Positions 4,358-29,575 of a stretch of DNA of 64,000 bases are shown one piece after another. Under the pieces are notes generated by a model that was given only the letters and a program-made list of their open reading frames with translations, was not told the DNA's origin and made no database searches. Each line of letters opens with the position of its first letter. The stretch's first letter is position 1. The stretch lies in NCBI RefSeq assembly GCF_058153355.1, contig NZ_CM177019.1, one strand, 5' to 3'. Position numbers and translations under genes: made by a program.

Positions 4358-5003
<646 letters not shown>

Positions 5004-6116: not shown

Positions 6117-6130
6117 TTTGAGGGAAAACA

Positions 6131-6307: not shown

Positions 6308-6319
6308 TACAAGGTGCTG

Positions 6320-9968: not shown

Positions 9969-10832
9969 ATGAAACAACACCAATCGGCGGATAATTCTCA
10001 GGGCCAGCTTTACATTGTACCGACGCCAATCGGCAATCTGGCGGATATCACCCAGCGTGCGTTGGAGGTATTACAGGCCGTTGATCTGATTGCCGCCGAG
10101 GATACGCGTCACACCGGTTTATTGCTGCAACATTTTGGGATTAATGCTCGGTTGTTTGCGCTGCACGACCATAACGAACAACAAAAAGCCGAAACGCTGC
10201 TGGCGAAGCTGCAGGAAGGGCAAAACATTGCGCTGGTTTCCGATGCCGGAACGCCGCTAATTAACGATCCTGGCTACCATCTGGTGCGTACCTGCCGTGA
10301 AGCGGGCATTCGCGTGGTGCCGCTACCTGGACCGTGTGCTGCTATCACTGCTTTAAGCGCCGCGGGTTTACCATCCGATCGTTTTTGTTATGAAGGCTTT
10401 TTACCTGCCAAATCAAAAGGCCGTCGTGATGCGCTAAAAGCCATTGAAGCGGAGCCGCGTACGTTGATTTTTTATGAATCCACCCACCGTCTGTTAGATA
10501 GCCTGGAAGATATCGTTGCTGTGCTGGGTGAGTCCCGTTACGTGGTGCTGGCGCGTGAGCTCACCAAAACCTGGGAAACCATTCACGGCGCGCCCGTTGG
10601 CGAGCTGCTGGCGTGGGTCAAAGAAGATGAAAACCGTCGCAAAGGCGAAATGGTGCTGATTGTCGAAGGTCATAAAGCACAGGAAGAAGACTTACCCGCC
10701 GATGCCCTGCGCACGCTGGCGTTGTTACAGGCTGAGCTTCCGCTGAAGAAAGCGGCGGCGCTGGCGGCAGAGATTCACGGCGTGAAAAAAAACGCGCTGT
10801 ATAAGTATGCGCTGGAGCAGCAGGGGGAGTGA
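9969..10832 (+). CDS. rsmI: 16S rRNA 2'-O-methyltransferase RsmI
   Basis: 287 aa tetrapyrrole-methylase-fold protein. Confidence 0.9.
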
Positions 10833-10881
10833 TTACTGGCGTCGCAGCAAGAATAGAGCTGCAACGCCTACACCGGACGAT

Positions 10882-11649
10882 TTAACGACGACACATCTCA
10901 TCAATCATGCATGTGAAATAGTTATGCAGCCATAAAAACGAAGCCGGGATAGCGGTAGAGACTTTAGCCGTGAGAAAACGTTCTGTCGCATCCTGCTTTC
11001 CTTCGCCAGTTATCAGTAGCAAAACTTCGCGGGTATTGAGAATATCCTTCAGGCCTAAGGTGATCCCACGAGTCACGGGGCGACCCGCGGTTTTTAGCAT
11101 CTCATGTTGCTGTGTTCTGGCATCAAGTTGACTGATATGGCAGGCCGGTTGCAGGCTTTCTCCCGGTTCGTTCAGCCCAAGATGACCGTTTTTCCCCAAT
11201 CCGAGAACGCATAAATCCAGACCGCCTTTGCGCGCAATCAGGTTCGTTACCCGTTCGCACTCTGTCTCATTTATCTCTTCGGAGCGAAAGCTGATGAGCT
11301 GGTCTTCACGTAGCCCCAGCGGCTGCACGATATGCTGTTGAAGGAAAGTTTCGCAGGTGCCAGGCATCGTTAATGGCAGATCCACCCATTCGTCGAGCTT
11401 CACGAAGGTGAGCTGGCTGACATCAACCTGCTGCTGGTGGATTTTTTCTACCAGATAATGATACGTCAGTAATGGCGTGGCTCCGGTCGCCAGGCAAATC
11501 ACGGCATCCGGTTTGCTACGGATCACGGCCAATAAATATTCGCTGGCACGTTCACTTAACGCCGTATAGTTTTCAACTTGTTGAAGGGTTTGCACAGGAT
11601 GAAATTCCTTTAGTAAAGAGGCACCACCAGACGCAGTGCCTCGTTCCAT
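10882..11649 (-). CDS. agaI: Galactosamine-6-phosphate deaminase/isomerase AgaI (NagB family)
   Basis: 255 aa NagB-like ORF; ATG overlaps agaD stop. Confidence 0.85.
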   Translation of the reverse strand: MERGTASGGASLLKEFHPVQTLQQVENYTALSERASEYLLAVIRSKPDAVICLATGATPLLTYHYLVEKIHQQQVDVSQLTFVKLDEWVDLPLTMPGTCETFLQQHIVQPLGLREDQLISFRSEEINETECERVTNLIARKGGLDLCVLGLGKNGHLGLNEPGESLQPACHISQLDARTQQHEMLKTAGRPVTRGITLGLKDILNTREVLLLITGEGKQDATERFLTAKVSTAIPASFLWLHNYFTCMIDEMCRR

Positions 11650-12441
11650 TTACAAAATGCCGAATGCGGAACAAACAATAGAGAGCACAAAAGTCACGCC
11701 GATTAACAGCACCGGATGCGCTTTTTTCACCCGCAGGAAGTAATACATCAACAGGGTGTAGGCCATCGGTAAAATGTTCGGGAAGACTTTATCGAAGAAA
11801 TCCTGCTGCAGCGCGACGCTGTGGGTACTGTCGATGGCAAACGATGTCACCACGTTAATATGCACATACGAAGCGATCAGCCCGCCGATTACCGTGATCC
11901 CGAGGATGGTTGCCGAACGAGCAATCATCTGCGAGTTCTCTCGCACTTTATCGATCGCCTTCACGCCGACTGAATAACCGACGTGGGTCCAGCCGACGCG
12001 CAGGAAAAAGATAAGCAGGTAAACGGCGAAAAATAGAATCGGCCCCAGCAAGTTTCCCTGGCTGGCAAATGATGAGCAAATTCCCGCCATAATCGGCAAT
12101 AAGGTAAACCAGAAAATCGCATCGCCAATCCCGGCGATTGGGCCAAACAGTGCCACTTTGAGGCCTTTAATGGTGTCGCGGTTTTCTCCTTTTTCTTCCA
12201 TCGAAATTAATAACCCCATCAGGAATCCGACCAGATTCGGGTGGGTATTAATAAATTCGAGGTTATCTTTCATCGCCGCGCTTAGGCCCGGTTTATCGTC
12301 CTTATAAATCTTTTTCAGGATCGGCAACATCGCCCAGGTAAAACCGCCCGCCTGCATCCTTTCGTAGTTAAAGCTTGCTTGTAGCAGTGACGAACGAAAG
12401 CCCAGACGGGTGATATCTTTTTTACTGATTTCAGATCCCAT
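11650..12441 (-). CDS. agaD: PTS galactosamine EIID AgaD
   Basis: ORF 11650-12588; start at MGSEISKKDITRLGF, mannose-family IID. Confidence 0.88.
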   Translation of the reverse strand: MGSEISKKDITRLGFRSSLLQASFNYERMQAGGFTWAMLPILKKIYKDDKPGLSAAMKDNLEFINTHPNLVGFLMGLLISMEEKGENRDTIKGLKVALFGPIAGIGDAIFWFTLLPIMAGICSSFASQGNLLGPILFFAVYLLIFFLRVGWTHVGYSVGVKAIDKVRENSQMIARSATILGITVIGGLIASYVHINVVTSFAIDSTHSVALQQDFFDKVFPNILPMAYTLLMYYFLRVKKAHPVLLIGVTFVLSIVCSAFGIL

Positions 12442-13234
12442 TGCTGTAGTCCTCTTCTTCATTTTTACTGGCAACGGGCTGCGGTTGCGCTTGCTGCCGG
12501 GATTTCGCATTGAAAAACTCATACACCGCAAAGCCTGCGCCCAGTACGGCAACCGGCAACAGGTTGCTGACCTGGATGTAGCAAACAAACAGGAAACCGG
12601 CGATCAGGTAAGGGATATATTGCGCTTTGAACATTACGCGCAGCAGCAAGCCAAAACCAACGGCAGGCAGAATACCGCCAGCCACTTCAAAGCCGTGGGT
12701 CAGCCAGGCGGGCATCGCTTTCACCAGCGCCTGCATCGCCCCTTGCGCCAGGTAAGTACAGAGGAAAGCAATCACCGCATACGCTGAAGCGACGATGAGC
12801 ATCGTTGTCCAGTTAAGTCGGGAAAACGCTGCCGTATCCGCATCTTTCGCGCATTTATCGGCTTTGGTCATAAATAATGAGAAAGCGGAATAGAAGAACA
12901 GAATGACGTACTGCATTAACAAACTAAACGGCAGGCCAAGACCAATTGCCGTTTTGGCATCAACGCCCGTAGACCATGCAATGACGGTGGTCATCAGACC
13001 CGCCATAATCGGGTTGGGCGGCTGAACACCACCTGCAGGGGTTAATCCGGCGAAAGCCAACTCTGTTAGGCCACCGGTAATTAAGCCAGTCTGAATATCA
13101 CCGAGAATAGCACCTGTAAGGGTACAAACGATTATCGGGCGGAATAAAAATAAGGCTTCCAGCCAAAAATCAATCCCCAGAACGAAAACTAACGCCGCCA
13201 GGGATAATCCCTGAATTAGGGTTATTTCATGCAT
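12431..13234 (-). CDS. agaC: PTS galactosamine EIIC AgaC
   Basis: 267 aa mannose-family IIC; 11 nt overlap with agaD. Confidence 0.9.
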   Translation of the reverse strand: MHEITLIQGLSLAALVFVLGIDFWLEALFLFRPIIVCTLTGAILGDIQTGLITGGLTELAFAGLTPAGGVQPPNPIMAGLMTTVIAWSTGVDAKTAIGLGLPFSLLMQYVILFFYSAFSLFMTKADKCAKDADTAAFSRLNWTTMLIVASAYAVIAFLCTYLAQGAMQALVKAMPAWLTHGFEVAGGILPAVGFGLLLRVMFKAQYIPYLIAGFLFVCYIQVSNLLPVAVLGAGFAVYEFFNAKSRQQAQPQPVASKNEEEDYSNGI

Positions 13235-13273
13235 TTTTATTACCTCAAACCAGTATTAAGGCGATTTTTGAAT

Positions 13274-13750
13274 TTAGTCAGGGATTTGTTCTTTTTGATC
13301 GCCGGGGACGTCCTGAATAAAAATATTCACACCGCGTTGTTTAATAAAGCGTAAGTCCGTGAGATCCTGGTCATCGACATAAACTTTACTGCTGATTTGC
13401 TTTTTCCCTTCCGAGAAATGCATATTGCCGACGTTGACATCTTTCAGGTCAATACCACCTTCTACCAATTTACGTACCGTTTGTGGTGTGCGGCAAATCA
13501 GGAAGATCTTCTGATGCGGTGCAGCTTTGCCGATGACGTTAATGGTTTTTTCGATAGTAAAGAAACGAATGCCAAAGCCGTAGGTTTCCGCGGTAATACC
13601 CATTAATTTCTGTTGAATATCATCGTTAGCGACAACATCATCCACGACTACCAGCAGATTTGCACCGATGGTAGATGTCTAGGTCACACCAACCTGACCG
13701 TGAACCAGACGGTTATCAATACGGGTTAAGAGAATATTTGGACTGCTCAT
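13274..13750 (-). pseudogene. agaB: PTS galactosamine EIIB AgaB interrupted by in-frame TAG at codon 24
   Basis: From ATG at 13750: MSSPNILLTRIDNRLVHGQVGVT-TAG-TSTIGANLLVVVDDVVANDD...; stop codon at 13681-13679; downstream 123-codon frame is intact. Confidence 0.7.
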
Positions 13751-13916
13751 TGTGTAATCCTCACCATAAAGTTGAATAATATAATTTTTTTAAATATATT
13801 ATTGTTGCGATATTTTACTGATGTATTTATTAAGTTTTAGTTATCTCCTTTACCATTAAGGCACTCCCCGATATTAATCGGGAAGTACATTGGGATAAAT
13901 CATAAAAAACTAATGA

Positions 13917-14789
<873 letters not shown>

Positions 14790-15944
14790 TTATGCCTGCC
14801 ACGGATGAATGATTACGCCTTGCACCACGCGGTTAACGGTGCCGCTGGCTGATGGGGTATCCGGCGTATTGCCCATGTGCAGCGACTGCATCAGTGCAAA
14901 CGTCTGGGCGTACATCAGGAAGCAAAATGCCTGCTCAACGTCGATAAAGTGACGTGACGGCGGCAGGATGATATGTGGACCGGCGGTAATAACGTCGTTG
15001 CCTTCCGCGGCGATGGCGATTACGCTCATTGCCTGGTTGTCACGGCGGAGTTCTGCCAGCAGATCAAGATCATACTGACGCGTATAGGGGTGGCTGGAGA
15101 CAAACACCACCACCAGCGTTTCGTCATCGACCAGTGATTTAGGCCCATGACGGAATCCGGTCGGGGAATCATAAAAGGCCGCCAGTTTACCCGCCGTTAG
15201 TTCAAGCACTTTCAGCGCCGACTCGCGTGCTGCACCCTGTAATCCACCACTGCCGAGATAAACGATCCGTTTCCATGGTGCGTAACCAAACACACCTTCG
15301 CTGAAATCGCCCAGTGAGGTCAGGATTGCCTGGCAACGATCCGCTACGTCGCGGAAGGTCTGGCTATTGATTGTCTCAGGTGCGAAAACCGCGAGGCAGC
15401 TGGCCATCATAGTGGTAATGCTACTTGTCATCGCAAAGCCGCGATCGTGCGTTTCTGCGGGCATCAGCAGGGCAAACGCGTTGTCGCTGTTGATCGCGTT
15501 TTGGTAAAGAGCGCCCGCTTCGTTGCAGGTGATCGGCAGGTGATAGCATTCCGGTACAAACTGATTCGCCAGTTCCACGGCGGCGACGCTTTCCGGGCTG
15601 TTGCCAGATCGACCGAAGGAGATCAACAGCAGTGGATGCGCTGGATTCAGGTAGTCCATTGGATTGGTGACCAGATCGGTGGTCGGTACGGCGCTGACGT
15701 TTTTGCCGGTATGGCTGGCAAGCCACGGCGCGATGATGTCACCGATAAATGCCGAGGTTCCGGCTCCGGTCAGGATGATCCGCAGATTCTCTTTGCGCAG
15801 TAACGGTTCAAGGAAGTTATTGAGCGCTGTACGTAACGCGTCGATGTTGGTGAGTGAACGGATCCATGCGCGAGGCTGATGGCGGATCTCTTCTTCAGTC
15901 CATGTGCCGGTGGTGGCGGCCGCTGGGGTGTAATTTTCTGGCAT
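14790..15944 (-). CDS. agaS: SIS-domain sugar isomerase/deaminase AgaS
   Basis: 384 aa tandem-SIS protein. Confidence 0.9.
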   Translation of the reverse strand: MPENYTPAAATTGTWTEEEIRHQPRAWIRSLTNIDALRTALNNFLEPLLRKENLRIILTGAGTSAFIGDIIAPWLASHTGKNVSAVPTTDLVTNPMDYLNPAHPLLLISFGRSGNSPESVAAVELANQFVPECYHLPITCNEAGALYQNAINSDNAFALLMPAETHDRGFAMTSSITTMMASCLAVFAPETINSQTFRDVADRCQAILTSLGDFSEGVFGYAPWKRIVYLGSGGLQGAARESALKVLELTAGKLAAFYDSPTGFRHGPKSLVDDETLVVVFVSSHPYTRQYDLDLLAELRRDNQAMSVIAIAAEGNDVITAGPHIILPPSRHFIDVEQAFCFLMYAQTFALMQSLHMGNTPDTPSASGTVNRVVQGVIIHPWQA

Positions 15945-15989
15945 AACTCAATCCTTAGTCTGATGAACTTGACTTCCGGCATTGCAGGC

Positions 15990-16110
15990 TTTGCTTGCCT
16001 TTCGTTTCATTTCACTTGGTGATTCGTTTCGTTGATTAAAATCTATAGAAAAGAAATCGAAAGTTAAATGGGGAAAAAAGAAATAAAACGAAATTTGTGA
16101 TCGTTGAAAG
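15990..16110 (-). promoter_or_regulatory. agaS promoter region with AgaR operator-like TTTCGTTTCATTTC motifs
   Basis: tttcgtttcatttcac (16003-16018), ttcgtttcgttg, and complement of gaaataaaacgaaa match the recalled AgaR operator consensus. Confidence 0.5.
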
Positions 16111-16294
16111 AAAAGACAAGGGAAGATTAAAGGATTGCGTGATGACGTCGCTATGTGTACCGATTGCTGGAAGCGGCGTACCGTAGAGCGGATAAGACGC
16201 GCCAGCGTCGCATTCGACACCACTGCACAGATTAAAACGAAAGAAAAAGAAAGGCCTTACGGGGGAAGTGAAGGCCCAATAAAGGAGCAAACCA

Positions 16295-17428
16295 TCAAAA
16301 CGAAGCTAATTGACCCTGAATCCAGATTTGTTGCACATGCAGTCCGCTATCCAGCGCAACGACGCTGGCGCGTTTGCCCGGTTTAAGTGATCCCAAAACA
16401 CCATCAACACCCAGCATTCGCGCCGGATGCAGCGACGCCATATGGATGGCTTCCGCTGGCGTTACGCCCGTCAGCTCGACCATATTGCGAACAGCCGCAT
16501 CAACAGACAGCGTACTGCCCGCCAGTCCACCGGACGCGGTACGGACAACGCCGTCGTGCATCTGCACCTCTTCACCACATAACGTATATTGACCATCCGG
16601 CATCCCGGCTGCCTGCATCGCGTCGGTGATCAGCACGATTCTCTCTTTCGCACAGCAACAACACAGCGACATCGCCGCCGGATGTACATGATGCCCATCG
16701 GCTATCAATTCCAGCCAGGCGCGCTTGTCCGTTAAACCCGCGCCAACCATTCCCGGTTCGCGGTGATGTAATCCTGTCATCCCGTTATAGCAATGCACCA
16801 GGCCGTCGGCACCAACATCAAATGCGGCGCGGGTTTGTTGCCAGGTTGCTGCGCTATGTCCCAGCATTACCCGCACGTTCTGCTGTTTAAGATGACGAAT
16901 GGCTTGTAACGCGCCCGTTTTTTCCGGTGCCAGCGCCACCACGCGCAAGGTATGCCGTGAAACAGCAATCAATTGATCCAGCTCGGCAATTTCCAGCTCG
17001 CGAAACAGCTCCGGCGGATGTGCGCCTTTATTCTGCGGCGTGAAGTACGGTCCTTCGAGATAACTCCCCAGCACTTGCGCACCAGGTCCACCGCGCTGGC
17101 AGCGTAGAGCAATACGTTCCAGCGCCGCATGAATGGTATTAAGCGGCGCGGTTACGGTAGTCGGCAACCAACTGCCGACACCTTCCCGTGCCTTGTGCAT
17201 TGCCAGCTTGTCGAGCACATCCGGCGCGTCATCCATAACATCAACGCCCGCACCACCGTGTACATGGGTATCGATATAAGCGGGGCAGAGCAGTTCCGCA
17301 TCGCGTTCAGCCACGCCCACTGGAATCGGTTCGATTGCTGCAATTACACCGTCAGCAATATGCAACTGATGATCATCAAGCCAGCCCTCCTCAGTCAGCA
17401 GCCTTCTGGCGCGCAGAACGTGTGTCAT
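16295..17428 (-). CDS. agaA: N-acetylgalactosamine-6-phosphate deacetylase AgaA (full length)
   Basis: ORF 16295-17449; start at MTHVLRARRLL; NagA-like amidohydrolase. Confidence 0.85.
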   Translation of the reverse strand: MTHVLRARRLLTEEGWLDDHQLHIADGVIAAIEPIPVGVAERDAELLCPAYIDTHVHGGAGVDVMDDAPDVLDKLAMHKAREGVGSWLPTTVTAPLNTIHAALERIALRCQRGGPGAQVLGSYLEGPYFTPQNKGAHPPELFRELEIAELDQLIAVSRHTLRVVALAPEKTGALQAIRHLKQQNVRVMLGHSAATWQQTRAAFDVGADGLVHCYNGMTGLHHREPGMVGAGLTDKRAWLELIADGHHVHPAAMSLCCCCAKERIVLITDAMQAAGMPDGQYTLCGEEVQMHDGVVRTASGGLAGSTLSVDAAVRNMVELTGVTPAEAIHMASLHPARMLGVDGVLGSLKPGKRASVVALDSGLHVQQIWIQGQLASF

Positions 17429-17859
17429 ATTCCTTCCTCGACCGGACATTCTTCATGGCAGCGGCCTAACTCGTCCACCAGACTGGTCAGCCCACGGTGT
17501 CCACACTCCAGCGCCTGTACACGGAATTCTTCACCGCTTAACCCTTCGCGCTCCAGCACCATTTCCAGTAACAGTTGCAAATTGGTGCCGGTGATCACTT
17601 CATAGCCCGGTTTTTGCATCGCCAGCGTTGAAGCCACGCGAAACGGTGTGCCGCCCAGCAAATCTGTCAGAAAAACAATGCCGTCTTCACAATCCAGTTT
17701 GGCAATGGCTTCTTCAAGCTGCGATGTAAGCAGCGCAGTGCTTGAGGTTTCCGGAAAATCAATGGCGATAAACTGCGACTGCTCGCCGAGGATTTGCTTC
17801 ATTGCTTTTTCCATGCCGCTGGCAAATCCGCCATGCCCTGTCAAAATAATACTTAACAT
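17425..17859 (-). CDS. agaF: PTS N-acetylgalactosamine EIIA AgaF
   Basis: 144 aa mannose-family IIA. Confidence 0.85.
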   Translation of the reverse strand: MLSIILTGHGGFASGMEKAMKQILGEQSQFIAIDFPETSSTALLTSQLEEAIAKLDCEDGIVFLTDLLGGTPFRVASTLAMQKPGYEVITGTNLQLLLEMVLEREGLSGEEFRVQALECGHRGLTSLVDELGRCHEECPVEEGI

Positions 17860-17876
17860 CTAATACCTCATTGTAT

Positions 17877-18761
17877 TTAAAGGAAATGACAGAATTTACC
17901 GACGATGCCAAGAACCACGGTAACCGCAATCAGGCGCAGCGGGCTCCAGCCGCGGCGTACCAGCCAGAACATGGTCAGGGTGTAGACCAGCGGTAAGAAG
18001 GCAGGCATCAGTTTGTCGATAACATCAGCCTGTAACTTAACCACTGCGTCGCCAGCGGTGATTTCCAGCGTGGTGCTTAAACGAACATAGGTTGCCACCA
18101 GCGCGCCGATTACCGTCATCCCAACGATTGACGCAGCATGGCCGACTTTTTTGGTATTCGCTTTAATGAGTGGAATCGCCGCCACGCCCATGCGGTAAGC
18201 ATAATGCGCCAGACCAAAACGCAGCCCCAGGTGTACCACGTTGAACAGCACAATAAAGACGACTGCGCCAAGAATAGAGCCTTGCAATGCCAGACTGGCA
18301 CCAATCCCGCCACAAATCGGCAGTAACGTTAGCCAGAACATGGCATCGCCAATCCCGCCGAGCGGCGCACCGACGGCAATTTTGGTGCTCTGAATACTGT
18401 TAACGTCCTGCTTAGAACGCTCCATCGCGAGGATAATGCCAATAACAAACGTCACCAGAAATGGATGGGTATTGAAGAAACCCATATGTCCCTTCATGGC
18501 GGGCGCCAGGTCGCGTTTATTAGTGTGGATCTTTTTCAGAGCAGGCAGCAGACCGTACAACCAGCCGGAAGCCTGCATACGCTCGTAGTTAAAAGAAGCT
18601 TGTAACAGCATGGAACGCCAGGCGACGCGGTTGATATCTTTTTTTGTTAGCTCCGCGCCAATGTTCTGATCTTCGTATACGTTTTCATTGACGCCTGTCA
18701 GTAGTGTCTCTTCATTTTCGCTGACGTTCGGCAGGGTGGTTTGATTAGATGCCATCTTCAA
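17877..18761 (-). CDS. agaE: PTS N-acetylgalactosamine EIID AgaE
   Basis: 294 aa mannose-family IID. Confidence 0.85.
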   Translation of the reverse strand: MKMASNQTTLPNVSENEETLLTGVNENVYEDQNIGAELTKKDINRVAWRSMLLQASFNYERMQASGWLYGLLPALKKIHTNKRDLAPAMKGHMGFFNTHPFLVTFVIGIILAMERSKQDVNSIQSTKIAVGAPLGGIGDAMFWLTLLPICGGIGASLALQGSILGAVVFIVLFNVVHLGLRFGLAHYAYRMGVAAIPLIKANTKKVGHAASIVGMTVIGALVATYVRLSTTLEITAGDAVVKLQADVIDKLMPAFLPLVYTLTMFWLVRRGWSPLRLIAVTVVLGIVGKFCHFL

Positions 18762-19524
18762 ATTCCTCTTTCTGTGCCGCAGGTTGAGTCGGTTCAGGAG
18801 ATTTACGCAGCAGGTCGATCAGCGCCATCGCCAGCGCGGCGGCAGCAATAGCCAGCACCGGTAACTTGAGCCAGGCTGCGGCAACGAAGCCCAGGATGAA
18901 GTAGGGGATATAGACGTTTTTCATCATGATTTTCAGCAGCACGGCAAAACCGATTGCTGGCATGATGCCGCCCGCGACGCCAAGGCCGTCGATTAACCGT
19001 TGCGGCAGGACATCAATGATGGTTTTTGCATGCTCCGCGCCGAAGTAGATAGGCAGGAAAGCGCAGAGAAAATAGAACGTGCCGAGTGCCAGCAATGCCA
19101 GATAGTTCACGCGTTCAATGCCGCGAGTATCGGCGTTCTCCGCCATCCGGTCGCAGCGGGACATCACGCCAGACATCACCGAGAACAGGAAGGTAATCCC
19201 CATCTGTACTGCGACAGCGAAAGGTACGGCGACACCGACCGCGACATCCGGTTTCACGCCAGTAGTAATGGCAAACGCCGTGCCGACGATAGTTCCGATA
19301 ATCACGTTAGGCGGCTGTGCGCCCGCCAGCGGTGCCAGCCCCATCCACACCAGTTCCAGCGTACCGCCGGTTAAAATACCGGTATGCAGATCGCCAAGCA
19401 CCAACCCAACTAACGGGCCGAGGACCACCGGGCGGTGCATATGGGTCAAGCCGTTAAACATATCCAGGCCAGCGATAAAGGCGATAATGCCCAACGCAAA
19501 TGCCTGCAACAGACTGATTTCCAT
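18745..19524 (-). CDS. agaW: PTS N-acetylgalactosamine EIIC AgaW (full length)
   Basis: 259 aa mannose-family IIC, not truncated. Confidence 0.85.
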   Translation of the reverse strand: MEISLLQAFALGIIAFIAGLDMFNGLTHMHRPVVLGPLVGLVLGDLHTGILTGGTLELVWMGLAPLAGAQPPNVIIGTIVGTAFAITTGVKPDVAVGVAVPFAVAVQMGITFLFSVMSGVMSRCDRMAENADTRGIERVNYLALLALGTFYFLCAFLPIYFGAEHAKTIIDVLPQRLIDGLGVAGGIMPAIGFAVLLKIMMKNVYIPYFILGFVAAAWLKLPVLAIAAAALAMALIDLLRKSPEPTQPAAQKEEFEDGI

Positions 19525-19534
19525 AATGAATCCC

Positions 19535-20008
19535 TCAAAGTAATTTAAAGAGGTCCACAGCAGGTTCTGTCGGAACGCCCTGAACGAAGCATTCCACCCC
19601 AGCGGCTTTCAGGTCGTTAAATGCCGCGATATCGCTCGCATCCACAGAAACCGTTTTGGCAATTTGCTGCTTGCCATTGGCATAGTGCATGTTGCCAACG
19701 TTAATGCGACTCACCGGGACACCACCTTTAACCAGCGTCAGGAAATCGGCAGGTGTTTTACAAACCAGCAGGATTTTCTGCCGATCGGCGGCGCGGTGGA
19801 TGTTGTCGATCACTTTTTGCAGCGTCCAGAAACGTACGGCGATCCCTTCTGCCAGTACCATTTCCATCAGGTTTTGTTGTACCGGATCTTCGGCAACCTC
19901 ATCATTGGCTACCAGCACCAGATTTGCCCCCGCAAATCCGACCCACTGAACGCCGACCTGACCGTGAATCAAACGCTCATCAATCCGGCTTAAAACAATA
20001 TTTGGCAT
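19535..20008 (-). CDS. agaV: PTS N-acetylgalactosamine EIIB AgaV
   Basis: ORF 19535-20044; start at MPNIVLSRIDERLIHGQVGV. Confidence 0.85.
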   Translation of the reverse strand: MPNIVLSRIDERLIHGQVGVQWVGFAGANLVLVANDEVAEDPVQQNLMEMVLAEGIAVRFWTLQKVIDNIHRAADRQKILLVCKTPADFLTLVKGGVPVSRINVGNMHYANGKQQIAKTVSVDASDIAAFNDLKAAGVECFVQGVPTEPAVDLFKLL

Positions 20009-20030
20009 AGCGTGTTCCTCTTTGTTTTGC

Positions 20031-21311
20031 TTATTGGCCTTCACAGGCTGTGTGGTACTGCGCCAGGATGTCCTGAATATGGTTGATAATGAGTTCCCGT
20101 GGTGTTGGCTGCAGCTCGCCGGAGCGAACTTTCACGTACTGCAGCGGCAAATACTGGCTGATGAGCGGTAGCGGAATTGGTGCATCCGCCAGATTACGAA
20201 CCAGATGAGCGAAAGCGTCATCAATCTGGCTGTCCGGCCAGTAATAGCGCACGCGATCCGAGTAGCTATAACCACGCGCCAGACGACGCGCGTTGCCGTC
20301 ACCGTGGTAGTGGCTTTGCCAGTATTCCGGGCGGTCGAGCATCACGTTTTCCAGCACCTGACGCAGACCGGAACAGGCTTTCGCTGGCACCAGTTCTTCT
20401 TCAATCGCCGCCAGAGAGAACAGAGCTTCACGCAGGGCGAAGGTCAGCGCCGGACCAACTTTCAGAATGGCAAAGTGGTCAATCACCAGCTGGCGCAGCG
20501 ATTGCGGCGTTTGGTAATCGGTAGAGTGCGCTTCGAAAATCAGCGTTTCGTAGTTTTCGACCATCTGGCTTAAGGCGGTCGCTTTAGCTGGCTGATAATC
20601 AATAACGTTGGTGTGATCGAATTCGACGCCGGGTTGTACCACCAGAGCAATGATGCGTGGCCAGATGGCATTCAGACCTTGCTTTTCAAAGGCGTGACGA
20701 TGGGCTTCCAGCGTGGCGCGGGCGGCATCCGGCGTGGTGACCGCCAGCTCGCTTAAGGTTTCATGCGCGCCGCCAGGTACCGGCACTTCGGTACCAATGA
20801 CATAGACCAGATCGGCTTCGCCAAAGTGTTCACGACAGGTTTCTTCCGCGACTTTAGCCAGTCGGGCGGCGCGTTCAGCCACGATGTCATCGGTTAAGGG
20901 AACCGGATCGTCCTGACAGGACATGCTGCAATCAAGGTGAATTTTTTTGAATCCTGCCGCCACGTAGCTTTTAATCAAATCATCGGCATTGGCCATCGCC
21001 TGAGCTGCAGGCAGGTTTTGCCAGCGGTTTGGCCCCAGATGATCACCACCCAAAATCAACGCATCCTGTGGGAAATTCAATGAGTCGGCGAGCTGACAAA
21101 CAAAGCCGCGAAAATCGGCGGGTGTCATTCCGGTATAACCGCCGAACTGGTCCACCTGATTGGATGTCGCTTCAATCAGTAACGGTGTTTGGTTTGCACT
21201 GGCGTAGCGGATTGCAGCTTCCAGCACCAGCGGGTGTGCGGAACAAACGGCATAAATCCCATTTGTTTTGCCCTTTTTGTGCTGCCTCACCATTTCTGTC
21301 AGATGTTTCAC
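20031..21311 (-). CDS. kbaZ: Tagatose-bisphosphate aldolase subunit KbaZ
   Basis: ORF 20031-21377; probable GTG start giving [15 protein letters not shown]..., ~426 aa. Confidence 0.85.
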
Positions 21312-21559
21312 TTTCCTCTCCAGTTCAGATTGCTGCGATATTAATCTTTCGTTTTGTTTCAGTTGATACTGCGTCATGGTGAGATAAAAATAAAACGAAA
21401 GATAATAGTTTTCTGATCTGATTCACAAAAGAAACATAATGAAAGTCTCTAAAACGAGAGTAGCTTGCGGCTGGGGGCAATGTGGGCTTGCATTTGCTTA
21501 ATAGAAAGGCGTTAATAGGCAAAACGAAATGAAACGAAAGTTTTACGAAAGGACTTACT
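21312..21559. promoter_or_regulatory. Divergent kbaZ / agaR promoter region with AgaR operator-like repeats
   Basis: Complements of aaaataaaacgaaag and gcaaaacgaaatgaaacgaaag give TTTCGTTTYATTTY-type motifs. Confidence 0.6.
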
Positions 21560-22369
21560 ATGAGTAATACCGACGCTTCAGGCGAGAAGCGAGTGACAGG
21601 CACCAGCGAGCGACGAGAACAAATCATTCAGCGCCTGCGACAGCAAGGGAGTGTGCAGGTTAACGATCTGTCGGCATTGTATGGCGTATCTACTGTGACG
21701 ATCCGCAACGATCTGGCGTTTCTGGAAAAGCAGGGGATCGCTGTGCGGGCCTATGGCGGCGCGTTGATCTGCGATAGCACGACGCCGTCAGTCGAGCCAT
21801 CAGTGGAAGATAAAAGCGCGCTGAACACTGCGATGAAATGCAGCGTTGCGAAAGCTGCCGTTGAGTTGATTCAGCCAGGTCATCGGGTGATCCTCGATTC
21901 CGGGACCACCACGTTTGAGATTGCTCGTCTGATGCGCAAGCACACTGACGTAATTGCGATGACCAATGGTATGAACGTAGCCAATGCACTGCTGGAAGCA
22001 GAAGGCGTTGAACTTCTTATGACCGGCGGGCATCTGCGGCGTCAGTCGCAATCTTTTTACGGCGATCAGGCTGAACAATCGCTGCAAAATTACCACTTCG
22101 ATATGCTGTTTCTTGGTGTAGATGCGATCGATCTGGAGCGCGGTGTCAGCACGCATAATGAAGATGAAGCCCGTTTAAACCGTCGGATGTGCGAAGTTGC
22201 GGAACGGATCATCGTGGTCACCGATTCCAGTAAGTTCAACCGTTCCAGTTTACATAAGATCATTGATACTCAACGTATCGACATGATCATTGTTGATGAA
22301 GGCATTCCTGCGGATAGTCTGGAAGGACTGCGAAAGGCTGGGGTTGAAGTGATTCTGGTCGGGGAGTGA
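21560..22369 (+). CDS. agaR: DeoR-family repressor AgaR
   Basis: 269 aa, N-terminal HTH plus DeoR C-terminal sugar-binding domain. Confidence 0.9.
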
Positions 22370-22901
22370 GAAATGGTGCCCGTAGCTCAACACGGATGTG
22401 TTCGGCGGGCATTGTTCACTGTCCTTTTACAGCCTGTTTTCTGCTCAAATTAGAAGCTTCAGCAAAGGTAATGCAAATGCATTATTAACAGCAGAAAGCG
22501 CCAGAACCAACGAAAAAAGAGAGCATGTTTCCCATTTTGCGAGGCGCTTTCCAAATCACCCGCTCAGTCCCCTCGCGTTGCAGTGCTAAAAGCACTATTT
22601 TGCAAATTTGTGACCTTCTTCACTCTCCCAAAAGGCGGTGATCTCACGGTGGGGATCCACTTTCTGCTTTCGCTTTTCTGCCGTTAGCACTCGCTATTTC
22701 GGCATCTCTTCTTTTCACTTTTTCAGTTTGTCATTTTCATTTGCGGTCAACCGAAAGTTCTGGAGTCGATTTTTCCAGGTTTCAACGCCGTTGTCGCGTT
22801 CACAAATTCACTTCTTTTCTTCTGATGTAATGCATTCAAAAGAAAATGAAAGCTGCAAAATGCAAGAATGCAACTAAATACTTTTTCAGGGAGCGATAAA
22901 C

Positions 22902-23672
22902 ATGCTAGATAGCCTAAGACGCCGCGAACAAATCATTGATTTGTTATGTGCCCAGGGAAGCGTACGCGTTGAGCCGCTCAGCATCCATTTTGGTGTCTCA
23001 TCGGTCACGATCCGCAATGACTTACGGTATCTGGAGCAAAAAGGTTGCGTCATGCGTTCCTATGGCGGTGCCGTGTTGAATCAACACTTTGCGCTCGACA
23101 GACCCTTGCAGGATAAAGATCGCCTTAATCGTGATGTTAAAGTGCGAATTGCCGAAAAAGCGGCCAGTTTTGTCAAAGATGGCGATACATTAATTATCGA
23201 TTCTGGTTCAACGACCACGCTAATTCCCGCTTCGCTCAAAGGGCGTCGGGATTTAGTCGTCATGACGAATGCCTTGAATATCGCCTGGGAAATGGCCAGT
23301 TTTGAACGGGTGGATGTTATGATCCTTGGTGGAAATGTTCGCCAGAGCGTCTACTCCCTGTATGGGCCTTCGGCAGAACAACAACTCCGGCAGTATCGCT
23401 TTGATAAGCTGTTTCTGGGCGTGGACGGCTTTTGCCTTGAAGCAGGGATTACCACGCCACATCCGGGTGAGGCACATCTGAACCAGGTGATGTGCCAGGT
23501 TGCGCAGGAAATTACTGTTGTCGCGGACTCCAGTAAATTTGGCCGCAAAAGCTTCTGTATGATCGGTGAAGTGAGCGAGATAGATCGACTGATTACCGAT
23601 AGCGGTATTCCGGAGAATTACAAAGCAGCATTAACGCAAATGGGTGTGGAAGTTGTGATTGCTGATGAGTGA
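22902..23672 (+). CDS. DeoR-family transcriptional regulator, AgaR paralogue (accessory)
   Basis: 256 aa; N-terminus RREQIIDLLCAQGSVRVEPLSIHFGVSSVTIRNDLRYLEQKG parallels AgaR; good RBS (GGGAG). Confidence 0.85.
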   Translation: MLDSLRRREQIIDLLCAQGSVRVEPLSIHFGVSSVTIRNDLRYLEQKGCVMRSYGGAVLNQHFALDRPLQDKDRLNRDVKVRIAEKAASFVKDGDTLIIDSGSTTTLIPASLKGRRDLVVMTNALNIAWEMASFERVDVMILGGNVRQSVYSLYGPSAEQQLRQYRFDKLFLGVDGFCLEAGITTPHPGEAHLNQVMCQVAQEITVVADSSKFGRKSFCMIGEVSEIDRLITDSGIPENYKAALTQMGVEVVIADE

Positions 23673-23676
23673 GAAA

Positions 23677-23708
23677 ATGTGGCTGGAGATAAACGTCGCC
23701 AGCCACAT
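23677..23708. terminator. Hairpin between convergent DeoR regulator and ROK kinase genes
   Basis: tgtggctgg...ccagccaca inverted repeat. Confidence 0.4.
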
Positions 23709-23716
23709 TACGTTAT

Positions 23717-24628
23717 TCAGGTTGCATGTTCGATTTGCAGCAACGCCGCGCCTCGTACACCGCTCGTTGCTCCGTGAATGGCAGAAAATACGCGCGCAGG
23801 TTCCAGTCCAGGAAGAAGATAACGCGTCATAGCTTTCGGCAATAACGTGTAAATTTCTTTGAAGTTAGACACACCGCCGCCAAGAACAAATGCATCTACG
23901 TCGAGAATATGCTGCAACTGTGCCAGCGTACAACCAACCATATCTATCCAGGCGCTAATGGTGGTGATGGCACTGGGAACGCCACGTTGATGATTTTCTA
24001 ACAATGTCTCCATAGTGATTTGCTCATCGCTGAAATGCTTATGTAACCAGAGCAAGCCAGGACCGGACTGGTAGCGTTCCAGGCACCCTTGCAAACCGCA
24101 GCCGCATTGTAATTCAGGCAGGTTATAGCGCCGCGTAAATGTCGCCGGGAGCGGTAAATGGCCAAACTCGCAGGCCATACGGTTACGGCCACGGTACAAC
24201 TGGCCATCAATAACTAATCCCCCGCCCATACCCGTGCCGATAATCGCGCCAAAGATCCGACTATATTGACGAGCTTGATCGGTATGCGCTTCTGATAGGG
24301 CGAAGCAGCAGCAGTCATTATCCATTATTACCGGGCGGTTAAGGCGATTTGCCAGATCGGTTAACACCTGGCGTCCGGTCAGGCAGGGAACGTTAGAAGA
24401 CAACAGTTTACCGGTGTGCCGATCCATAACGCCGGGCATCCCGATACCTATTTTGCCTTGCGTACCCGTGGCCCAGTCAGCGGTATCAATCAGAGACACA
24501 AATGTGGATAGAAAAAGCGCGTAATCCTGAACAGGCGTAGCTACCCGCTTGCGCCAGCAAATTTGTAAATCCTGATCAAAGGCGACTATCTCTGTTTTGG
24601 TTCCACCAATATCAACACCGTAAAACAT
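23717..24628 (-). CDS. ROK-family sugar kinase, NagK-like
   Basis: 303 aa; DIGGTK N-terminus and CGCG..C zinc motif as in N-acetylglucosamine kinase. Confidence 0.85.
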   Translation of the reverse strand: MFYGVDIGGTKTEIVAFDQDLQICWRKRVATPVQDYALFLSTFVSLIDTADWATGTQGKIGIGMPGVMDRHTGKLLSSNVPCLTGRQVLTDLANRLNRPVIMDNDCCCFALSEAHTDQARQYSRIFGAIIGTGMGGGLVIDGQLYRGRNRMACEFGHLPLPATFTRRYNLPELQCGCGLQGCLERYQSGPGLLWLHKHFSDEQITMETLLENHQRGVPSAITTISAWIDMVGCTLAQLQHILDVDAFVLGGGVSNFKEIYTLLPKAMTRYLLPGLEPARVFSAIHGATSGVRGAALLQIEHAT

Positions 24629-24646
24629 CGCTCATCTCCTTTGGTT

Positions 24647-25903
24647 TCACAGCACAACCAGGGTATTTTCCTTGCGAGCGCGTTCGGCGGCAAAGACCAT
24701 TAAATGACTTTCGAGCGATTCATCTGGTCCTGAAAGGATCATCGCTCGATCGTCAGCCATCACGGCATGGATAAAGCTGTCCATCAGATAGTAATCACCA
24801 CCACCGTGCCCTCCCATTTGGGTGTGAGTGCCTGCGTTTTTCTCTTCAACGGTGTAAATAGTTTCCTGGTCGGTGAGAAAATCAAAACACCGAATGGTGT
24901 TGCCATCGCCTTCCAGATAACCTTTCGAACCGAAAACTCGGGTTTTGCGATCCTCCATTTTCGTAAAGGCTGTCATTGTAAAAGTGACGCTCTGCTGATG
25001 CGCAAACTGCATGTTTACCACTTGATGATCAACAACATCGTTATCGCAGCAATAAACACAGCGACCATAGGGGCCGTCACGCAGGGCCTGACGAATATTC
25101 TCTTCAGTAGGATTTGGTGTTAACACGTGGCGAAAGTGAAACGTACATTTATGGGCTTCGCCAGCATAAATTTTGCATGCGGACCACGGGCAGGTCGCTT
25201 CTGCCTGGCAATCGAGACAGCGTTCGGCTGCGCCTTCAGGTTGGTTTTGTTTTACAAAATGGTTGAGCCCGCCAAATGAGCTAACGGTTTTACAGTTGTC
25301 TCCCATGATGTAGCGGATCCAGTCCAGATCGTGGCAGGACTTTTGTAACAACATAAATGATGATTCAGCCTCGTTGCGCCAGTTACCACGCACAAAAGAG
25401 TGTGCCTGGTGCCAGTAACCGACGGGTTCGAGATGCTGCATACTGATAATGTCGCCAATGATGCCGCTATCGAGTAAGAATTTGAGTTTTTGTGTATATC
25501 GGGTGTAACGAAGAACGTGTGCGACGGCTAATAAGACATTATTGCGTTTGACGGCATCAATGATAATGCGGCAATCGTGCTCTGTTGGCGCGAGCGGTTT
25601 TTCCAACAGAATGTGGTAACCGAGATCGGCAAAAGCGACGGCCGGATCTCTATGCATATTGTCTTGCGTACAAATAAGTACAGCATCAGCCATTTTTGGC
25701 CGAGCAGCAGCCTCTTTCCAGTTGCTAAAAATATTATCTGTCGGGATCGTATGCCGGGACACAACTTGCTCGCGGTAAGCCTCTCTAGGTTCAGCAACAC
25801 CTACCACTTGCATTCTGTCCGGATGCTCAAGGGCATAGCGGGAATATATTTCTCCACGTGCGCCTGCACCTATTACTAAAACAGTGACTTTATTTTTACT
25901 CAT
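24647..25903 (-). CDS. Gfo/Idh/MocA-family NAD(P)-dependent oxidoreductase with Cys-rich insert
   Basis: 418 aa; Rossmann N-terminus (VLVIGAGARG), EKP motif, Cys cluster CLDCQAEATCPWSACK...CVYCC. Confidence 0.8.
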   Translation of the reverse strand: MSKNKVTVLVIGAGARGEIYSRYALEHPDRMQVVGVAEPREAYREQVVSRHTIPTDNIFSNWKEAAARPKMADAVLICTQDNMHRDPAVAFADLGYHILLEKPLAPTEHDCRIIIDAVKRNNVLLAVAHVLRYTRYTQKLKFLLDSGIIGDIISMQHLEPVGYWHQAHSFVRGNWRNEAESSFMLLQKSCHDLDWIRYIMGDNCKTVSSFGGLNHFVKQNQPEGAAERCLDCQAEATCPWSACKIYAGEAHKCTFHFRHVLTPNPTEENIRQALRDGPYGRCVYCCDNDVVDHQVVNMQFAHQQSVTFTMTAFTKMEDRKTRVFGSKGYLEGDGNTIRCFDFLTDQETIYTVEEKNAGTHTQMGGHGGGDYYLMDSFIHAVMADDRAMILSGPDESLESHLMVFAAERARKENTLVVL

Positions 25904-25945
25904 ATAAAGAAATACCTTTCTGATAAATTCATCTTAATTGCTACG

Positions 25946-26704
25946 TTATAAATTACGAAAACTAACAAGATGAAATCCGTGTTTTTCAATCGCATATTTG
26001 AGTGACGGTGTAGTCAGAACCGTAAGTTCTTCCAGCCGTTGATAGCAGTAACTGCTCGACATTAAGTGGTTATCTACGAATCCAGGGTGACACATAATTT
26101 CCAGCGATTTTTCATCACGTTTTATGGCGCTATCGAGGAGTGATAAAAAAAAGTCTTCTGAAATATTATTATCGTAGAAATTACTGCTGAATCCCTCACT
26201 ACTTTTGGCATCCAGCGAATCGATTTTTTTCTCTCGCAGAACAGAATGGTCTATACGTAATGGTAAATTTTTCTCACGCGCGAACCGCGCGACAACGGGA
26301 TAAACCTGCGGGATCATATGAACGCTGTGATGGCTGTCTAAATGGGTGGGCTCCCGTTTAAATACATCAATAAAACGTTGATATTGAGAACTCAGTTCCT
26401 GTTCAATTTCACCCGTGTTTAATTGCCCTTGCTCCGCGACATCCCAGATCCATTTACCTAATTGGCCTGCGCGTACCAGCGAAGGCATATCCGTTAAGGC
26501 GGCGCCATAGCTCAAAACAAAATGTAACCCGACGCCGAGCTGTGGGGTTTCGGCACTTAAAGAGGCAGCATGATCAATTGCCGGAGCATTCATCATCGCA
26601 GTTGTTGAGCGAACGACACCATTTCGTACTGCCTCGATAATTCCATAATTAATACCTTTACTTAGTCCAAAGTCATCCGCATTCACAATTAATAAGCGTT
26701 GCAT
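25946..26704 (-). CDS. YdjC-family carbohydrate deacetylase (ChbG-like)
   Basis: 252 aa; NADDFG and HLDSHHxVH motifs. Confidence 0.85.
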   Translation of the reverse strand: MQRLLIVNADDFGLSKGINYGIIEAVRNGVVRSTTAMMNAPAIDHAASLSAETPQLGVGLHFVLSYGAALTDMPSLVRAGQLGKWIWDVAEQGQLNTGEIEQELSSQYQRFIDVFKREPTHLDSHHSVHMIPQVYPVVARFAREKNLPLRIDHSVLREKKIDSLDAKSSEGFSSNFYDNNISEDFFLSLLDSAIKRDEKSLEIMCHPGFVDNHLMSSSYCYQRLEELTVLTTPSLKYAIEKHGFHLVSFRNL

Positions 26705-26716
26705 AAGGCGTCCTTG

Positions 26717-28069: not shown

Positions 28070-28145
28070 GTTACTTCCATACTCAATATTAAATTGACTT
28101 GTGATGCCATGGTTTATCTAAACGCTGGCATGATGAAGCGTGCTA

Positions 28146-29506
28146 TTAAAACTTTAATGCATTGGCAATGTCTTCTTCGCTTTCTTGTTTAATTATTTCA
28201 ACTTGTGCTTTGTTTGAGATAATGACAAAGGGAAGATAAACCATTGTGGCAACACCTAAGTTAAAGAGCGCCAGGAGTAATCCAGCAATGCTTCCATTCG
28301 AGCTAAAGAACGCATTGAGTCCAGGAGGCATGGTCCAGGGGGCAATATTTGTTGATGGCGGAATAATACCCATGTTATAGGCGATTAAGGTAATCCCGGC
28401 GAGAATGGGTTGAATCATCACAAACGGGATTAACATAATGGGGTTCATAATGATCGGCAAACCAAATAAAATAGGTTCGTTGATATTAAAGATACCAGAA
28501 GGTAACGCTAATTTAGCAACCTGACGATAATCTTCCCGGCGTGACGCAATGAAAATGGCGAAAATGAGTCCCAGCGTTGCCCCTGTTCCACCGAGGAACA
28601 CGTAAGCGTCAAGCATTGGCCCGGTCCAGAAATGGAAGGTTTTTCCTGCTTCCAGTGCCGCTTGTACTGAACCATATTGTGTATAGGTGGCGATATTCTC
28701 CAGTCCCCACGGACCCAACGTGCTGCTTTGCAACGCGGTTAATACTAAGCCGCCGTGGATACCAAAGAACCATAACAGGGAATTAAAGACAACGAATGTC
28801 CAGCCAACAATACCGCTCATTGACGTTAATGGCGTAGCCAGTGAGGTGATAATGACCTGATGGAAATTGGTGCCATATATCGACAATATCCCAGACAAAC
28901 TACCCATAATTAACAGGATGATAAACCCGGGCACCATTGCTGAGAATGAGCGTGATACTGCGGCCGGAACACTCGCGGGCAACCGAATCACCCAGTTGCG
29001 GCGGATAATAAAAGCGAAAATTTCCGCTACAACTAATCCAATGATCATACCAGACAGAATATTGGCGCCGCCTAACCAGTTTGCACCAATGACATTAGCG
29101 GTTTCTCCTGCCTTGAAGGGGGTGACAGTCATAAACGCTGCGACAGAGAGTAAGCCAACGGATAACGAATCAACTTTCCGTTCTTCGGCCAACCCCATCC
29201 CAATAAAAAAGGGGGTCATGAGTGACATAATGCCCAGCGTGCCATGATAAGCACTGTCACCGACGACGGTGAAGGCGCTTAAGGTTTTTATGGTCGATGG
29301 TTCCAGTCGGACGCCTAATGAATAAAAAAGGAGCCTTCGCCAAAATCTAAAAAAACGCTATTAATGAGGACAAATAACGTACCGGCTAACGTTAATGGCA
29401 TCATACGGATAAAACCGTTTTTTATTGCATTGACGTGAGGTTGTTTCCCTAATTTAACTGCAAAAGGAAGAATGAGTTTTTCAAGTAACGCCATCACTCC
29501 GGGCAT
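28146..29506 (-). pseudogene. PTS lactose/cellobiose-family EIIC (ChbC-like) split by a frameshift
   Basis: N-terminal 63 aa (29506-29315, ...[12 protein letters not shown]) and C-terminal 360 aa (from 29228) are in different frames; the second frame reads FYSLGVRLE... upstream to the junction. Confidence 0.75.
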
Positions 29507-29575
29507 AAAAATATCCTTATATACCGATTAATGTATCACTGCGACTTTGGTTTTATTAATATCCTGTTGCTATGG

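Follow-up and report, generated by a model that had tools for sequence, protein, structure and literature searches.

An undeleted agaW-agaE-agaF-agaA segment in a strain that probably belongs to Escherichia cryptic clade I

Described aga/gam loci and the present cluster

The aga/gam cluster of Escherichia coli C comprises 13 genes and supports growth on both N-acetylgalactosamine (GalNAc) and galactosamine, according to Brinkkötter et al. 2000 as reported by Hu et al. 2013 (PMC3668189). E. coli O157:H7 grows on GalNAc but not on galactosamine and carries amber codons at codon 8 of agaC and codon 72 of agaI, while K-12, with a 2.3 kb deletion, grows on neither amino sugar (PMC3668189). On the account that Hu et al. 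give of the 2000 study, the K-12 deletion and the intact arrangement of E. coli C and O157 have been known since that time. For the pathway roles and for the phenotypes of K-12 and O157, we follow Hu et al. 2013 (PMC3668189). In the proposed pathway, AgaV (EIIB), AgaW (EIIC), AgaE (EIID) and AgaF (EIIA) would together form a mannose-family PTS permease that imports GalNAc as GalNAc-6-phosphate. AgaA would deacetylate this product to GalN-6-phosphate, which AgaS would deaminate and isomerise to tagatose-6-phosphate; a further phosphorylation would then yield the substrate cleaved by KbaY/KbaZ. AgaR would repress the operons through operators upstream of kbaZ, agaS and agaR. We infer these biochemical roles, and the prediction that the strain would use GalNAc but not galactosamine for growth, from the published genetics of E. 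coli C and O157:H7.

The stretch of DNA analysed here, referred to as the window, spans 64,000 nucleotides of contig NZ_CM177019.1. It was aligned with O157:H7, N96, EC42405 and K-12, and E. coli C was compared by description. As in E. coli C, the cluster holds 13 genes in the order agaR, kbaZ-agaV-agaW-agaE-agaF-agaA, agaS-kbaY-agaB-agaC-agaD-agaI, with agaWEFA undeleted and both agaC and agaI open. Unlike E. coli C, the window has an amber codon at codon 24 of agaB and the substitution R85P in AgaE, and its DNA is about 95-96% identical to that of mainstream E. coli. The likeness to O157:H7 lies in an intact agaWEFA, collinear over 3,230 bp without indels and with an AgaE that differs by 2 residues, and in a galactosamine branch that one amber codon disables, so that the two are predicted to share a phenotype. 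The position of that codon differs, however, and the nucleotide identity of the four genes is 93.7-97.3%. With K-12 the window shares collinear kbaZ, agaV, agaS, kbaY, agaBCDI and agaR at 94-99% identity, whereas prlF-yhaV and the yraHIJK operon, which flank the cluster in K-12, are missing.

A closer match is the clade I strain EC42405 (NZ_CP043414.1), which aligns collinearly with at least positions 1-37000 of the window, is 98.3% identical over 1-25000, and shares the aga cluster, the missing yraHIJK and a 7.8-kb island adjoining agaR. A rare ChbC-like PTS IIC gene near the cluster is frameshifted in the window and unbroken in EC42405. The two also part at AgaE residue 85, which is Arg in EC42405, and at codon 24 of agaB, where comparison of the translations gives the wild-type Trp in EC42405.

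Integrity of the four genes and of their surroundings

Positions 16295-19524 are tiled on the minus strand by agaA, agaF, agaE and agaW, and neither the open reading frame listing nor the translation contains an internal stop. The GalNAc-6-phosphate deacetylase gene agaA (16295-17428, NagA family) is intact and encodes 377 aa from the annotated ATG; an in-frame ATG upstream, at 17449, would extend the frame to 384 aa, and the interval is annotated identically in RefSeq strains. It is followed, in coordinate order, by intact agaF (17425-17859, 144 aa), for the PTS EIIA common to the GalNAc and GalN transporters, and by agaE (17877-18755, 292 aa), for the EIID for GalNAc, which is open and for which a mechanical reading from a TTG at 18761 gives 294 aa. 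The EIIC for GalNAc is encoded by intact agaW (18745-19524, 259 aa). Two antisense frames within the segment, at 17129-17605 and 19118-19543 on the plus strand, are regarded as by-products of the coding strand.

Searches against NCBIfam profiles matched AgaW end to end (NF040757, 410.8 bits, cut-off 300), AgaE over positions 1-292 of 292 (NF040760, 614.5 bits, cut-off 500) and AgaF over 1-144 of 144 (NF040761, 218.1 bits, cut-off 130); all three equivalog models of the mannose-family PTS permease thus scored above their curated cut-offs. AgaE is, moreover, homologous to solved ManZ chains (E = 7.9e-52). AgaF has His9 and keeps Gly91, a residue invariant in 63 of 63 homologues, whose replacement by Ser is the known GalNAc-negative mutation of the spinach-outbreak O157:H7 (PMC3668189). 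AgaA matches TIGR00221 nagA over profile positions 4-379 of 380 (287.3 bits, cut-off 225.65), aligns over its full length with solved NagA structures and, against 7nut_A, retains DTHVHGG, LEGP, LGHS, HCYNGM, HHREPG, ADGHH and TDA. By family it would be an N-acetylhexosamine-6-phosphate deacetylase of the NagA/AgaA type, with a predicted preference for GalNAc-6-phosphate. Between agaV and agaS the four genes form one contiguous, open series in the E. coli C-type arrangement, collinear with annotated RefSeq loci. The reading frames, their translation and the end-to-end profile matches hence bear out the earlier note, which held that agaW (259 aa), agaE, agaF and full-length agaA were all open.

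That note had also described a K-12 deletion of about 2.3 kb that truncates agaW and agaA and removes agaE and agaF, and annotation, BLAST and junction sequence agree with it. Junction alignment shows that K-12 MG1655 lacks 2,305 bp corresponding to window positions of about 16847-19151, the ends sliding by up to 6 bp within a microhomology, and BLAST of the window against the K-12 locus breaks at 16853 and 19149. Both agaF and agaE fall wholly within the missing stretch, which also takes in the N-terminal half of agaA and the C-terminal half of agaW. In NC_000913.3, agaW (b3134) and agaA (b3135) are annotated as pseudogenes with neither agaE nor agaF between them, and the remnants agaW' and agaA' are out-of-frame fragments. 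On the plus strand, the left deletion site (16844-16853) reads GGTTGCTGCG in the window and GGTCGCCGCG in mainstream E. coli (O157), and the right site (19149-19158) reads GGTCGCAGCG; the 6-bp GGTCGC is common to the left and right sites in mainstream E. coli, and the K-12 junction is CCAGGTCGCAGCG. The window does not carry the K-12-type junction, in which agaW' meets agaA' at GGTCGC without agaE or agaF, and all 2,305 bp are present. In the alignment to the two aga regions, K-12 is thus deleted and O157 collinear and intact.

The remaining genes of the GalNAc branch are likewise in place. Upstream on the minus strand lie intact agaV (19535-20008, 157 aa; PTS EIIB for GalNAc; NF008508, 320.5 bits, cut-off 180), with its N-terminal motif RIDERLIHGQV, and kbaZ, also called agaZ (20031-21311, 426 aa), which encodes the non-catalytic tagatose-bisphosphate aldolase subunit (NF012002, 896.9 bits, cut-off 707) and starts with GTG as in K-12. 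The DeoR-family repressor gene agaR (21560-22369, plus strand, 269 aa) is intact (NF007316, 574.4 bits; NF040755 AgaR, 464.4 bits). On the other side, again on the minus strand, stand intact agaS (14790-15944, 384 aa; TIGR02815, 630.9 bits, cut-off 529.2), whose product has been assigned as the GalN-6-phosphate deaminase/isomerase (PMC3668189), and intact kbaY (13917-14777, 286 aa), for tagatose-1,6-bisphosphate aldolase (NF009375, 666.7 bits, cut-off 542).

Candidate AgaR operators, defined by matches to the operator consensus, number five across the window, where chance would give 0.18, and all fall in two control regions. Three (21343-21366, 21425-21448 and 21520-21543) lie in the divergent agaR-kbaZ region (21343-21543), and two (15996-16019 and 16074-16097) lie upstream of agaS (15996-16097). 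The operator consensus is reportedly that of Ray and Larson from 2004; a literature search with the consensus string found no paper. The agaA-agaS intergenic region (15945-16294), which holds the agaS promoter and operator-like sites, is highly polymorphic, and its allele here is rare, with only 18 genomes reaching 95% identity and the others at about 85% or 91%. An Rfam scan of 9000-31000 returned nothing at gathering thresholds. Over 13600-22500, neither a generic sigma-70 promoter scan (4 against 8.1 expected from shuffles) nor a terminator scan (14 against 10.1) revealed any enrichment, and both are uninformative.

Private changes and the predicted phenotype

The cluster falls short of 13 intact genes by agaB alone, the other 12 aga/gam genes being open. 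On the minus strand, agaB (13274-13750; PTS EIIB for galactosamine) is a pseudogene in which TGG has become TAG at codon 24 (W24*, 13679-13681), whereas agaC (12431-13234), agaD (11650-12441) and agaI (10882-11649) are open. The context of the amber codon has no exact 71-mer match in 5,426 genomes, the best matches being one base off. The amber codon leads us to predict that the galactosamine permease is lost and that the strain would not grow on galactosamine.

The prediction for GalNAc is less straightforward. Codon 85 of agaE is CCC (18501-18503), where reference strains have CGC, and among 61 Enterobacterales orthologues the residue is Arg in 59, Lys in two and Pro in none; again no exact 71-mer of this context occurs in the 5,426 E. 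coli genomes. The only other difference of AgaE from the reference is S31N, at a variable residue. AgaA carries a private A205V where 65 of 69 homologues have Ala, and agaA is dispensable because NagA substitutes (PMC3668189). Given a private R85P at a conserved basic site, growth on GalNAc is no more than likely.

It could be argued that R85P inactivates EIID, so that the strain would fail to grow on GalNAc despite its open genes and would, together with the agaB amber codon, represent an early and independent decay of the regulon. This reading gains weight from a change that none of the 5,426 E. coli genomes matches and that hits a residue which is Arg or Lys in each of the 61 orthologues, and also from the private nonsense codon and the frameshift in the neighbouring PTS IIC gene of the same strain. 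A precedent also exists, since the single missense change G91S in AgaF abolishes GalNAc use in O157:H7 (PMC3668189). Nevertheless, conservation of site 85 does not extend to the mannose family at large, Ser being present in the solved ManZ homologue 7vlx_Z, and the remainder of AgaE differs only by the variable-site S31N, so that we consider an inactive transporter unlikely. That the agaB amber codon, AgaE R85P and the ChbC-like PTS frameshift together mark a strain in early independent decay of amino-sugar uptake seems to us, from the sequence, quite unlikely. Were R85P inactivating, a locus intact by its reading frames would still not support growth on GalNAc; the K-12 phenotype would then have been reached a second time, by another mechanism, and a functionally important residue of AgaE would be indicated.

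Lineage, ancestral state and significance

We hold with high confidence that the window carries the undeleted, ancestral form of agaWEFA, passed down vertically in a strain whose probable lineage is Escherichia cryptic clade I. Weighing against this reading are the private AgaE R85P, which could impair the permease, the private AgaA A205V and the rare agaA-agaS intergenic allele. In a clade I comparison covering about 50 kb of the window, identity to EC42405 is 98.3-98.7%; against mainstream E. coli it is about 96.1% over 39001-64000. Published average nucleotide identities for clade I exceed 98.3% within the clade and 95.9% to E. coli proper (PMC10100065). The whole-window pattern matches these values, which argues that the divergence of the segment is that of its genomic background; its identity of about 95.4% to most E. 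coli genomes would follow from the probable clade I lineage.

An identity of about 95% would also be accounted for if the intact segment had been regained from another lineage of Escherichia, through horizontal transfer or recombination. Consistent with such an event, only three of the 5,426 complete E. coli genomes reach at least 99% identity over 16295-19524, and the cluster is a mosaic, with identity to K-12 and O157 falling to about 90% near 16001-16500 and standing mostly at 98-99%, with one bin at about 96%, across agaI-kbaY (11001-14500). Furthermore, N96 carries the window-type aga allele (99%) between different flanks, its rsmI being at 96% and other genes replacing agaBCDI. Against this, the pattern of the segment recurs in the rest of the window (about 96% to most E. 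coli, 98.7% to clade I) and fits the clade I values, and no other Escherichia species comes closer, the nearest being E1V33 at 93-94% in agaS and agaA. We therefore reject a local horizontal origin as the main explanation and regard it as very unlikely; what looks recombined is rather the agaI-kbaY stretch, with its greater likeness to E. coli, and the allele of N96. A closer kinship of the segment to another Escherichia species was likewise rejected, as E1V33, E. whittamii, MOD1-EC7003 and E. albertii are all more distant, with 88-94% in agaA and agaS.

As for the undeleted segment itself, 4,929 of the 5,426 complete E. coli genomes (about 91%) have it with a coverage of at least 80%, and the K-12 junction occurs in 371; the 60 junction carriers listed all have genomes of 4.46-4.79 Mb and are nearly all named K-12 laboratory derivatives. 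The same gene order, kbaZ-agaV-agaW-agaE-agaF-agaA-agaS, with almost the same spacing, is found in E. albertii, Escherichia sp. MOD1-EC7003, Kluyvera and Citrobacter, and likewise in Enterobacter, Klebsiella, Raoultella, Yersinia, Buttiauxella and Morganella. Since the E. coli majority and outgroup genera share this order and spacing, the undeleted form is ancestral and the K-12 state derived. The reverse polarity, with K-12 ancestral and the 2.3 kb an insertion, is refuted by the out-of-frame pseudogene remnants of K-12, the population frequency and the outgroup synteny, and with nothing found in its favour its probability is close to negligible. Relative to O157, the four genes differ at 129 synonymous and 16 non-synonymous codons and agaW at 21 and none, the AgaW protein being identical in the window, O157, N96 and EC42405. 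This synonymous excess, with an unchanged AgaW, makes purifying selection evident. The earlier note's description of an ancestral complete GalNAc pathway thus stands as regards ancestry, by the majority and the outgroups, while completeness applies to gene content only, given AgaE R85P; the neighbouring galactosamine branch is broken by the agaB amber codon.

Taken together, our analysis adds to that note the probable clade I placement, the agaB amber codon and AgaE R85P. As the intact state is the norm, the value of the finding is chiefly practical, for annotation and phenotype prediction: the annotation of this strain should list agaW, agaE, agaF and agaA at full length and agaB as a pseudogene, and the finding helps to assign the window to cryptic clade I. 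It also advises caution in the use of K-12 as a reference at the aga locus.

Four open genes from agaA to agaW

The minus strand of 16295-19524 is tiled by four unbroken genes, as found by ORF listing and translation: agaA (16295-17428, 377 aa, or 384 aa for the mechanical ORF, which reaches an upstream ATG at 17449), agaF (17425-17859, 144 aa), agaE (17877-18755, 292 aa) and agaW (18745-19524, 259 aa). These limits coincide exactly with the agaA stop codon at one end and the agaW start codon at the other. In a profile search against NCBIfam models with curated cut-offs, every model was covered end to end by AgaW (NF040757, 410.8 bits against a cut-off of 300), AgaE (NF040760, 614.5 against 500), AgaF (NF040761, 218.1 against 130) and AgaA (TIGR00221, nagA, 287.3 against 225.65). 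Solved NagA structures can be aligned to AgaA over its full length, with conserved NagA-family stretches kept, and solved ManZ EIID chains can be aligned to AgaE. The same genes lie at the same relative coordinates in the RefSeq-annotated collinear loci of N96, EC42405 and O157:H7 F8092B. The claim of an earlier note, made for these same coordinates, that all four genes are present and open, with agaA at full length and agaW at 259 aa, is thus borne out. Furthermore, codon differences from O157 comprise 129 synonymous and 16 non-synonymous changes and the AgaW protein is unchanged, which indicates that the four genes are under strongly purifying selection.

Genomic background and variable flanks

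The segment is ~95.4% identical to most complete E. coli genomes and at least 99% identical in three. A locally imported aga allele, first suspected from the former value, was rejected because the whole window is similarly divergent from mainstream E. coli (about 96.1% identity, with 1-25000 and 39001-64000 covered); the divergence of the segment is therefore that of its genomic background. Identity to EC42405, which like 2013C-4282 is a cryptic clade I strain, is 98.3% over 1-25000 and 98.7% over 39001-64000. Since these identities fit the published ANI, >98.3% within clade I and >95.9% between clade I and E. coli proper (PMC10100065), the window probably derives from a clade I strain outside the complete-genome set.

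The cluster is a mosaic: for the most part, agaI-kbaY (11001-14500) shows 98-99% identity to K-12 and O157, one bin falling to about 96%, and agaS-agaR (15000-22400) shows 90-97% to both. This pattern suggests that clade I and E. coli proper have recombined here in the past, the breakpoint lying near 15000. The agaA-agaS intergenic region (15945-16294), where the agaS promoter lies together with two AgaR operator-like sites, is hypervariable across E. coli: its allele in the window is matched at 95% identity or better by only 18 genomes, the others falling into a ~91% class (2,812 genomes, 90-95% band) and a ~85% class (2,482, 80-90% band). The window allele is 90.5-91.7% identical to Escherichia sp. 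E1V33 / E. whittamii, as against 84-85% to K-12 / O157. N96 (NZ_CM169999.1) carries the window-type agaS-agaR allele at about 99% identity; downstream of kbaY (locus 1467-6488) its agaBCDI genes are replaced by a remnant IIB pseudogene and, after it, malX-like, MalY/PatB-like, LysR and MBL-fold genes, an arrangement that points to recombination and replacement at the aga locus.

Between agaR and garD, a 7.8-kb island (22489-30300) replaces the prlF-yhaV toxin-antitoxin pair. Its products are a second AgaR-family repressor, a ROK protein, a Gfo/Idh/MocA oxidoreductase, a ChbG-like deacetylase, a 6-phospho-beta-glucosidase and PTS IIC and IIB components, and the island probably serves to utilise an amino-sugar disaccharide. 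Among the 5,426 complete E. coli genomes only three carry it: R32_14_1F and EC42405, which are 99.6-99.7% identical, and GF4-3, which is 92.4% identical. Its ChbC-like PTS IIC gene (about 28147-29507, minus strand) has a 1-bp homopolymer deletion at 29324-29329 (A6, against A7 in EC42405) that puts the sequence out of frame from about codon 61 onward; the gene is a pseudogene unless the homopolymer was misread in sequencing. On the other flank (9969-11649), rsmI (yraL) directly adjoins agaI and the yraHIJK fimbrial operon is absent, as in EC42405; in K-12 and O157, unlike the window, yraHIJK separates the two genes.

Completeness of the GalNAc and galactosamine branches

According to published genetics (PMC3668189), AgaV (EIIB), AgaW (EIIC), AgaE (EIID) and AgaF (EIIA) would import GalNAc as GalNAc-6-P, which AgaA, replaceable by NagA, would deacetylate; AgaS would then deaminate and isomerise GalN-6-P to tagatose-6-P, and KbaY with KbaZ would cleave tagatose-1,6-bisphosphate, under repression by AgaR via operators at the agaR, kbaZ and agaS promoters. 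The window carries intact copies of agaV, kbaZ, agaS, kbaY and agaR, and AgaF keeps Gly91, whose change to Ser abolished GalNAc use in spinach-outbreak O157 (PMC3668189). Five candidate AgaR operators were found by consensus matching, against 0.18 expected by chance, all five in the agaR-kbaZ region or upstream of agaS.

Two substitutions are private to the window. AgaE Arg85 is Pro (CGC to CCC, 18501-18503), and the 71-mer with this codon is absent from the 5,426 complete E. coli genomes. Enterobacterales orthologues keep Arg (59/61) or Lys (2/61) and never Pro (0/61), yet the site is unconserved in the wider mannose family (Ser in ManZ 7vlx); the change may impair the GalNAc transporter, though this seems unlikely. 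AgaA A205V (Ala in 65/69 homologues) carries less weight, since agaA is dispensable. The complete GalNAc pathway that had been claimed therefore stands in gene content, tempered by these substitutions.

Completeness does not extend to the galactosamine branch. The gene agaB (13274-13750), encoding EIIB of the galactosamine permease, has a nonsense codon 24 (TAG at 13679-13681; TGG in EC42405). The surrounding 71-mer has no exact match in any complete E. coli genome, the best matches being one base off, and agaB would be a pseudogene unless the stop is a sequencing error. With the same proviso, a failure of the strain to grow on galactosamine is predicted, by analogy with the O157 amber codon in agaC that abolished such growth (PMC3668189).

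The K-12 deletion and the ancestral state

In MG1655 (NC_000913.3), agaW (b3134) and agaA (b3135) are annotated as neighbouring pseudogenes without agaE or agaF, and BLAST of the window against this locus gives two collinear blocks with breaks at 16853 and 19149. The K-12 junction reads CCAGGTCGCAGCG; undeleted O157 has CCAGGTCGCCGCG at the left site and CCGGTCGCAGCG at the right, and the left site in the window has drifted to GGTTGCTGCG. Comparison of the junction with the O157 sites indicates a deletion of 2,305 bp, joined at a 6-bp GGTCGC microhomology inside a 9-of-10 imperfect repeat and falling at ~16847-19151 on the window. This loss matches the published K-12 "2.3 Kb deletion", which prevents growth on GalNAc or galactosamine (Hu et al. 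2013 citing Brinkkötter et al. 2000, PMC3668189). The deletion that the earlier note had described, truncating agaW and agaA and removing agaE and agaF, is thereby confirmed; in alignments with K-12 and O157, two of the strains it had proposed as a check, K-12 is deleted, O157 undeleted and the window ORFs untruncated.

Of the 5,426 complete E. coli genomes, 4,929 have the segment at a coverage of at least 80%, a count of presence per genome rather than of ORF integrity, and a 201-bp probe spanning the K-12 junction matches over its full length in only 371. The 60 listed junction carriers (4.46-4.79 Mb) are almost all named laboratory derivatives of K-12 (e.g. MG1655, DH5alpha, DH1, C600, J53, NCM3722); an exception outside these 60 is TUM12357, a chicken isolate of 5.03 Mb. 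An AgaA scan of species-representative genomes gave 68 loci, and tblastn with seven window proteins showed the order kbaZ-agaV-agaW-agaE-agaF-agaA-agaS kept, at almost unchanged spacing, in E. albertii, Escherichia sp. MOD1-EC7003, Kluyvera, Citrobacter, Enterobacter, Klebsiella, Raoultella, Yersinia, Buttiauxella and Morganella. Because segment frequency, deletion distribution and outgroup gene order agree, the undeleted segment is ancestral, as had been proposed, and the K-12 state derived. As was already known, the species normally carries the segment intact.
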